From a virus (taxonomy: Duplodnaviria > Caudoviricetes): 64,000 bases of DNA. Shown in pieces: positions 28,165 through 28,749 of the stretch; position 1 is the stretch's first letter, and every line of letters starts with the position of its first letter. The notes below the pieces were generated by a model. That model did no database searches, was not told where the DNA came from, and worked only from the letters and a program-made list of their open reading frames with translations. The position numbers and the translations under genes were made by a program. The stretch covers positions 224,001 to 288,000 of IMG/VR virus record IMGVR_UViG_3300031555_004294; one strand, 5' to 3'.

Positions 28165-28183
28165 CATATAATGGTGCCTTGTA
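28165..28183 (+). promoter_or_regulatory. Phage promoter-like motif (YATATA-N9-TGTA) immediately upstream of array 2
   Basis: CATATA atggtgcct TGTA has the same spacing as copies at 739, 8736, 13101, 24446 and 45175. Confidence 0.65.
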
Positions 28184-28185
28184 AT

Positions 28186-28696
28186 AGAAAATCAATGTAA
28201 TCGACAGTATCAATATTTGAAAATGAATCACTAGAAGAGATAGTAACATAACTTATGAATGAATCAATATGTAAGACAGTATCAGACATATGCTAATGAA
28301 TCAATACTAATTACAGTAACAGTCACCACTAATGAATCACATCGGGTAACAGTATCAAATAAATATAATGAATCAAATAACTTGAAAGTATCAATTGTAG
28401 CTAATGAATCAGTGCACATTAATAATATCACAGCGGTAATAAATGAACCATAATTGCGGATAGTAACAGAAGGAAATAGTGAATCAATGTCAGGGAACAG
28501 TATCAAGAGGTGAAAAATGAGTCAGCGAGAATGACAGTATCATATGACAGCAACGAATCAATATATTAAACTCGTATCTTTTGTTCAAATGAATCATTCA
28601 TACGGACAGTATCATGCTAAATCAATGAATCATGGATGAAAATAGTATCAGTGACTTATAATGAGTCAAGATAAAAAACTCGTATCATTACAAATA
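28186..28696 (+). repeat. Dual-repeat guide-RNA array 2 (TIGR-like), 14 units of about 36 nt
   Basis: Same two repeats as array 1, for example 28331 AATGAATCA catcgggta ACAGTATCA aataaatat AATGAATCA aataacttg AAAGTATCA attgtagct. Confidence 0.92.
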
Positions 28697-28705
28697 AACA
28701 ATAAG

Positions 28706-28749
28706 AAATGACTAAATGAGATTTACTCTCATTTAGTCATTTTTTTTTT
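28706..28749. terminator. Terminator closing array 2
   Basis: AAATGACTAAATGAG/CTCATTTAGTCATTT plus T run. Confidence 0.85.

Follow-up and report, generated by a model that had tools for sequence, protein, structure and literature searches.

A remote dual-repeat TIGR array in a gut jumbo phage

Judged from its sequence, the cluster of short repeats at positions 28186–28705 (+ strand), which we refer to as array 2, is a genuine dual-repeat TIGR array of a known kind, comprising 14 tigRNA units and set in a remote layout that is conserved among related phages. We favour, with some reserve, a model in which this array is functional, its guides load the single TasA protein of the phage in trans and its transcript arises by read-through from the operon upstream. 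Positions refer to the 64,000-nt window that was analysed, which corresponds to bases 224001–288000 of the source phage, a 299,070-bp IMG/VR virus record judged complete. The source is a gut jumbo phage from animal faecal metagenomes, with a G+C content of about 31%.

Parsing array 2 into units resolved 14 edge repeats (consensus AATGAATCA) alternating with 14 loop repeats (AYAGTATCA), each 9 nt long, in the order edge repeat, 9-nt spacer, loop repeat, 9-nt spacer, and thereby bore out the 14 repeat units counted in a preliminary description of the region. The spacers measure 8–11 nt, mostly 9 nt, and the units keep a 36-nt register with a period of 36–39. Both outermost edges are incomplete: the first is truncated at its 5′ side (28186–28194), with AATCA alone kept (28190–28194), and the final one, which begins AAC, is truncated at its 3′ side (28697–28705) and carries a C3 that compensates G6 of the preceding edge. 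The last loop lies at 28679–28687 and the last spacer B at 28688–28696.

Dual-repeat TIGR arrays have been described as alternating 8–12-nt repeats with ~9-nt spacers in ~36-nt units, bearing truncated edges at both ends and a rho-independent terminator, with box D (xG) towards the beginning and box C (xCA) closing both repeat types (Faure et al. 2025, PMC12045711). Array 2 displays all of these sequence-level features and departs from the published description only in its position, its neighbours being a dCMP-deaminase operon on one side and a convergent gene of 229 aa on the other instead of tas. With no Tas gene adjacent, the term 'orphan' used in the preliminary description is apt. Its reading of the region as a non-coding guide-RNA array is likewise supported, on the + strand and with an intrinsic terminator at the end. 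Two short open reading frames, 64 aa and 74 aa in length, are the only ones that overlap the array; both fall within the repeats and are missing from relatives, in keeping with the earlier statement that the region holds no credible ORF, and an Rfam search with array 2 returned no matching family.

Across the 299-kb genome, edge and loop 9-mers (at most one mismatch) cluster at three places only, which are arrays 1, 2 and 3. Repeat searching and unit parsing showed array 1 (21406–21816, + strand) to be a second remote TIGR array, with 11 units and the same repeats; the stop codon of the final gyrase-A operon gene lies 8 nt ahead of it, and a hairpin and T10 come after it. Array 3 (38497–38997, − strand), parsed in the same way into 14 units, lies directly downstream of the TasA gene, and its repeats are identical to those of array 2.

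Compensatory changes between successive edge repeats

Repeat statistics were compiled over 163 edges and 180 loops from the 15 arrays of this repeat type, which were drawn from the source phage, a relative of 319,626 bp (IMGVR_UViG_3300029305_004950, hereafter G001), a more distant jumbo phage (L030) and six metagenome contigs (L052–L057). Three positions are strongly conserved in both repeat types over these 15 arrays (G4 in 98%, C8 in 98–99% and A9 in 91–94%), which extends the earlier observation that the terminal CA and the central G are nearly invariant. The functional importance ascribed to these bases on that occasion agrees with published tigRNAs, in which the G matches box D and the CA box C (PMC12045711).

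Position 7 of an edge covaries with position 2 of the next edge (15 arrays; Fisher p = 3.6e-10), the successions from edge n to edge n+1 comprising 10 C7–G2, 2 C7–A2, 7 T7–G2 and 147 T7–A2, counts that are not all independent events if related arrays inherited a variant block. When edge order was shuffled within arrays 20,000 times, 10 C7–G2 successions were never reached, and no association between positions 7 and 2 was found in these arrays at offsets 0 (the same edge), +2 or −1. Edges with G6 are followed by an edge with C3 in three of the three cases in which the successor is known (15 arrays). The compensations thus convert U7–A2′ to C–G and A6–U3′ to G–C between successive edges, as expected for a mature RNA that extends from the centre of an edge to that of the following one, with its 5′ AU paired to the AU of its 3′ AAUGA. 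Two edge-repeat base pairs supported by covariation have already been published (PMC12045711). G–U combinations are tolerated and C–A combinations are rare, which points to the + strand as the RNA strand.

Within array 2, a run of four variant edge repeats (28442–28560, + strand; edges at 28442, 28478, 28516 and 28552) accommodates two compensated pairs, C7–G2′ between the edges at 28442 and 28478 and G6–C3′ between those at 28516 and 28552, and a further G–C pair connects the edge at 28660 with the terminal AAC. Because each edge variant is compensated in the next edge, both predicted terminal pairs of the 36-nt tigRNAs are kept in 14 of the 14 units. The preliminary description had remarked that the repeats are more variable here; variants are indeed present, but they do not reflect relaxed constraint, every one of them, including the four edge variants listed there, being compensated across successive edges. 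Such within-array compensatory changes define the predicted ends of the mature guides from sequence.

These data also bear on the possibility that the repeats act as DNA, for instance as iterons or as sites for a replication, partition or packaging protein, to which we assign a negligible probability. Cooperative binding of a protein to short phased repeats spaced by 18 bp is conceivable, but the arrays have a strict strand polarity, truncated end edges and a terminator downstream, and the repeats are identical to those of the array directly downstream of the Tas gene. Moreover, successive copies covary, and the asymmetry between G–U and C–A fits RNA only.

A single, nuclease-less Tas protein

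The 299-kb genome has one Tas gene, recognized by profile and fold matches, which encodes the 349-aa TasA (39064–40113, − strand). It lies 10.4 kb from array 2 on the opposite strand, and nine genes and array 3 separate the two. The TasA family profile matched TaTasR (PDB 9mty, E 1.6e-35) and SpTasH (E 9e-21), in both cases over the coiled coil and Nop domain only. In the AlphaFold model (pLDDT 82.6), residues 1–47 are disordered and the remainder is all-helical; Foldseek placed the TasH and TasR cryoEM structures first (probability 1.00), followed by IS621/ISCro4. The protein consists of coiled-coil dimerisation helices and a Nop domain, and as it leaves no room for a RuvC or HNH domain, the Tas protein is a TasA, that is, a solo-Nop protein. 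Since arrays 1 and 2 share the repeats of array 3 and the genome holds a single Tas gene, both remote arrays would have to use TasA in trans, and we presume that it is the partner of array 2.

The best fold and profile match for the TasA Nop domain and coiled coil is SpTasH of the Salicola phage CGphi29 (PDB 9w03, 9w04, 21kl; PMC13421893), whose system is phage-encoded and uses dual-repeat guides, as in the source phage. SpTasH differs from TasA in having an HNH domain, in its 8-nt rather than 9-nt spacers and in Tyr289, which corresponds to a Phe in TasA, while its His296 is kept. SpTasH processes its own precursor by means of Tyr289 and His296, a catalytic dyad reported to be conserved in dual-repeat systems (PMC13421893). 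According to our alignment, TasA has this dyad in part, with F321 at the Tyr289 position and the His retained as H328. Close clade members with AATGAATCA repeats also have Phe at this position, more distant homologues have Tyr and TaTasR has Trp; the His is nearly invariant in the family. As Phe replaces the catalytic Tyr, self-processing by TasA may differ, and a host RNase or another residue may be needed.

A 13–14-bp hairpin with a T-run (39010–39046, − strand) separates the tas stop codon from array 3, and the same arrangement was observed in L030 (L030:10935–10966). Given this hairpin, the tas-adjacent array 3 may be re-initiated or attenuated rather than simply co-transcribed.

Conservation of the array locus in related phages

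Eight phages (the source phage, G001 and L052–L057) carry an array between the deaminase operon and the convergent gene. These arrays have the same repeats, 11–20 units and leaders of ~4–23 nt, and the proteins flanking the locus have diverged to 60–78% identity. Searching IMG/VR for related loci with the Tas protein returned nothing, and the gene neighbouring array 2 found a relative; the six contigs L052–L057 were found through homologues of the 134-aa gene that precedes array 2. No close relative of the source phage was found among the GenBank phages searched. Faecal-metagenome contigs (DNA) from other samples are identical to the array 2 region over 27534–28513.

Owing to the periodicity of the repeats, a MAFFT alignment of two syntenic arrays was unreliable, and we used a unit-wise comparison instead. 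Nearly all spacers differ among the eight arrays at this locus, and the unit-wise comparison of array 2 spacers with all other arrays detected nothing significant that was shared. A hairpin and T-run of different sequence occupy the same place in G001, L052 and L054–L057, and the L053 contig ends inside the array.

The more distant phage L030, whose TasA is 46% identical to that of the source phage, has a second array with the same repeats (L030:1–470, − strand) at ~9.7 kb from its tas gene (L030:10001–10948). As L030 also possesses a remote array, dispersed arrays seem to be a trait of this jumbo-phage clade. Two further arrangements were seen in G001. A three-unit mini-array with the same repeats (G001:C1:266953–267060, within L027 and L047) lies 69 kb from tas and is bracketed by a 15-nt inverted repeat (TTTTTGAATTAAAGA / TCTTTAATTCAAAAA). 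The tas-adjacent array of G001 is split into two sub-arrays by a ~50-nt insert (L026:5017–5088) that contains a Shine-Dalgarno-like AAAGGAGG.

The conservation of the locus argues against array 2 being a decaying, non-functional duplicate of the tas-adjacent array whose repeats drift from disuse. Such a reading would account for its larger number of non-consensus repeats compared with arrays 1 and 3, for a degenerate 3′ end without a clean final edge and for its remoteness from tas. It is at odds, however, with the compensation of the variant edges, which leaves both terminal pairs in 14 of 14 units, and with the maintenance of G4, C8 and A9. Nor does decay explain why an array of 11–20 units has been retained in eight phages despite the divergence of the flanking proteins, why terminators are conserved in function among relatives or why array 2 is identical in contigs of other faecal samples, and we regard it as very improbable.

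Transcription of array 2

Array 2 is preceded by a tightly packed three-gene operon (26869–28162, + strand) whose gene order is kept in relatives and which encodes a dCMP deaminase (26869–27390; Pfam PF00383, E 2e-28), a 122-aa protein (27393–27761) and a 134-aa protein (27758–28162), the last two assigned from the gene map and all on the + strand. The leader of array 2 after the 134-aa gene measures 23 nt. On the other side of the array, an intrinsic terminator (28703–28749, both strands) consists of a hairpin (28703–28745) and T10 (28740–28749); the hairpin comprises a 15-bp core, extending to at most 19 pairs, with a fold energy of −22.3 kcal/mol (z = −7.9). The convergent gene has its stop codon within the T-run, so this terminator probably acts in both directions. 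The 15-bp hairpin with a T-run recorded in the preliminary description is therefore real, but it is shared with the convergent gene instead of belonging to the array as its own terminator.

The convergent gene (229 aa; 28748–29437, − strand) had no Pfam or PHROG match and forms the conserved right border of the array locus. It is the last gene of a minus-strand block that ends at 28748 and includes a virion structural protein. The + strand block before array 2 encodes a polymerase-like protein and the deaminase, and array 2 sits between a nucleotide-metabolism operon and a late-looking gene block.

The 19-nt motif proposed earlier as the promoter of array 2 (CATATAA-N8-TGTA; 28165–28183, + strand) is present as described and stops 2 nt short of the first partial repeat, AGAAAATCA, at 28186. 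Exact matches to its pattern number two in the window and three in the whole genome, and the looser ATATAW-N8-TGTA has 21 genome matches, 17 of them intergenic. The leader contains a perfect TATAAT (28167–28172), and a sigma-70 scan of the leader reported no −35 box and no two-hexamer promoter.

We compared this motif with the promoter-like family of the phage genome, which comprises ~51 sites of at least 17 bits (46 intergenic) with a clear score gap below them. The family core is made of TATATATTCT, five bases and a TGTA-like element; it starts with T/C-A-T-A-T-A-T, two bases and T, positions T7 and T10 being invariant, and a T-rich element lies upstream, often preceded by GTATT. Each of twelve exact TATATAT-N8-TGTA matches faces a gene with a ribosome-binding site 15–35 nt downstream. 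Family sites in the window include those at 739, 8736, 13101, 24446, 26805 and 45175 (+ strand) and at 38405 and 54520 (− strand). The 28165 site has A7 and G10 in place of the two invariant T residues, is without the upstream T-rich element and scores −9.1 bits with the position weight matrix as against at least 17 for family members; ~620 of 598,000 genome positions score at least as high. The motif is thus neither a member of this promoter family nor, as had been stated, the same as the one before many gene clusters.

The nearest upstream + strand family promoter is the site at 26805, whose core (26805–26823, + strand; score 19.7) is held within a 20-bp perfect palindrome at 26787–26833; the RNA that includes array 2 probably begins at this promoter. 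No terminator-like site was found between 26833 and 28186. In those relatives whose contigs extend far enough, a family promoter is likewise found ahead of the deaminase operon (L026:9320, L054:1951, L055:348). No family site lies within 150 nt upstream of the syntenic arrays in relatives. None of the seven syntenic arrays of related phages has the 28165 motif, and their leaders extend ~4–20 nt from the stop codon of the upstream gene. The palindrome at 26787–26833 may be an operator or attenuator; the homologous site of G001 (L026:9320) has a similar arrangement.

These observations run counter to the earlier view of array 2 as a stand-alone unit with a dedicated early-type promoter, since the motif matches the family poorly, is missing from seven of seven syntenic arrays and is not accompanied by a terminator that would insulate the array. 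On balance we favour array 2 as the non-coding tail of the dCMP-deaminase operon transcript, with read-through as the main source of its RNA.

In the alternative scenario, an own promoter at 28165–28183 would start a ~550-nt pre-guide RNA near 28181, and the 5′ end of the first guide would be set near initiation. The perfect −10 hexamer at 28167–28172, membership of a set of only 21 genome matches to ATATAW-N8-TGTA (17 intergenic) and a matrix rank in the top 0.1% of genome positions speak for such a promoter, as does the truncated first edge, which suggests that upstream cleavage is unneeded. Published minimal arrays needed full edges for processing (PMC12045711), and the truncated edge counts against read-through, which leaves the 5′ end of the first guide unaccounted for. 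Other arrays of the clade (array 3 and both L030 arrays) follow a hairpin and T-run and may need re-initiation. Opposed to this are the two broken invariant positions together with the low score and the missing T-rich element, the lack of a −35 box in the sigma-70 scan, the absence of the motif from the seven syntenic arrays and the lack of a terminator between the operon and array 2; furthermore, leaders of some relatives extend only ~4–10 nt from the stop codon and leave no room for an intergenic promoter. We consider initiation at an own promoter possible but rather unlikely, and hold the same doubtful view of a real additional promoter confined to the source phage. The promoter claim is the least supported part of the preliminary description. 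It has been pointed out that co-transcription and separate promoters of TIGR arrays cannot be told apart from sequence alone (Xu et al. 2026, bioRxiv 10.64898/2026.09.09.750476), and our analysis of array 2 agrees with that limit.

Spacers and candidate targets

One unit with identical spacers A (ACATGGTCA) and B (CTTTCAATT) is present in both array 1 (21697–21733, + strand) and array 3 (38778–38742, − strand) and is the only guide duplicated within the source phage. Another near-identical guide, matching at 17 of 18 bases, is found in unit 13 of the array 2 homologue of G001 (G001:C1:204300) and in L030 (L030:108–143, − strand), with spacer A (A/T)CTTGAATT and spacer B TTGAATGGG; the TasA proteins of both these phages are distant from that of the source phage. 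Together its spacers specify a near-palindromic site, TTGAAT...ATTCAA, which is a good candidate for target hunting.

We searched spacer pairs in both strand geometries with gaps of 0–2. The 39 pairs of the source phage, when compared with its own genome and that of G001, and the 34 pairs of G001, when compared with both genomes, gave cognate matches no better than non-cognate ones. PMC12045711 contains three statements on strand geometry, two of which favour spacer B in sense orientation followed by the reverse complement of spacer A. The array 2 unit at 28403 gave 0 and 2 matches in viral contigs, at chance level, and the unit at 28516 gave 36 taxonomically scattered matches in 596 Gb of genomes, about the number expected by chance. 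A search of the source genome for a reverse transcriptase (RVT_1) that might act as a spacer diversifier, as in a DGR, found none.

Discussion

We infer from these data how array 2 would be transcribed, processed, loaded and used. The array would be transcribed on the + strand mainly as the 3′-terminal, non-coding part of the dCMP-deaminase operon, from ~26805 to the bidirectional hairpin and T-run at 28703–28749. Cleavage of the precursor in the middle of each edge would yield 14 RNAs of ~36 nt, each with the predicted organization 5′-AUCA, spacer A, AYAGUAUCA, spacer B, AAUGA-3′, and with its two ends paired (A6–U3′ and U7–A2′). Each RNA would be held by a TasA dimer at box D (G) and box C (UCA) in both repeat types, and its two 9-nt spacers would each base-pair with a different strand of an 18-bp DNA target. 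As TasA is without a nuclease domain, binding and repression are expected rather than cutting; by analogy, the outcome could be DNA binding that blocks transcription or replication, with targets in the host or in competing elements. TasA has been described as an RNA-guided repressor, and MbTasA and nuclease-dead TasR, both RNA-guided transcriptional repressors, resemble the TasA of the source phage in being nuclease-less (bioRxiv 10.64898/2026.09.09.750476).

The closest published counterpart of array 2 is FpTIGR-TasA of Flavonifractor plautii (PMC12045711), which it resembles in repeats, spacers, units, truncated edges, terminator and boxes, and whose Tas protein is a solo-Nop as in the source phage. 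The two differ in layout: published arrays lie upstream and/or downstream of tas, whereas array 2 lies on the opposite strand at a distance of 10.4 kb, follows on from an unrelated operon and belongs to a set of three arrays that a single TasA would serve. The TIGRFinder survey annotated arrays around tas loci only and left open both the source of guides for 'arrayless' Tas proteins and the question of array-own promoters (Xu et al. 2026, bioRxiv 10.64898/2026.09.09.750476). The TIGR literature that we searched makes no mention of orphan or remote arrays or of guide supply in trans.

Parallels to array 2 exist in other RNA-guided systems. Orphan CRISPR arrays are served in trans by distant cas loci; like array 2, they have no adjacent effector, and their repeats recur in an array of that genome which is linked to an effector, yet array 2 differs from them in RNA architecture and protein family, and no adaptation genes or leader-type promoter were identified for it. 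Box C/D snoRNAs are excised from longer host transcripts. Polycistronic box C/D snoRNA and sRNA clusters share with array 2 Nop-bound guides, box C/D-like anchors, paired termini and a longer parent transcript, whereas the array 2 system would target DNA rather than RNA, has no fibrillarin or L7Ae partner and is built of strict tandem 36-nt units. Clustered box C/D arrays are noted in the discussion of PMC12045711.

TIGR-Tas systems were reportedly first described in 2025. In the source phage, a single TasA is accompanied by three dispersed arrays, two of them 10–18 kb from tas, and the position of an array at the end of a housekeeping operon is kept in eight phages with almost complete spacer turnover. 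A more speculative idea, to which we give a small chance, is that TIGR arrays are wired into the 3′ ends of the gyrase A, dCMP deaminase and tas operons, loading one TasA with different guide sets as infection proceeds, and that the arrays are also renewed in place. In-place renewal is possible given that the locus, the C7/G2′ variant blocks and the terminator persist while nearly all spacers are replaced; if true, it would amount to a spacer-turnover process without Cas1-like genes or reverse transcriptase. Both guide supply in trans and read-through expression could be tested on the array 2 locus.
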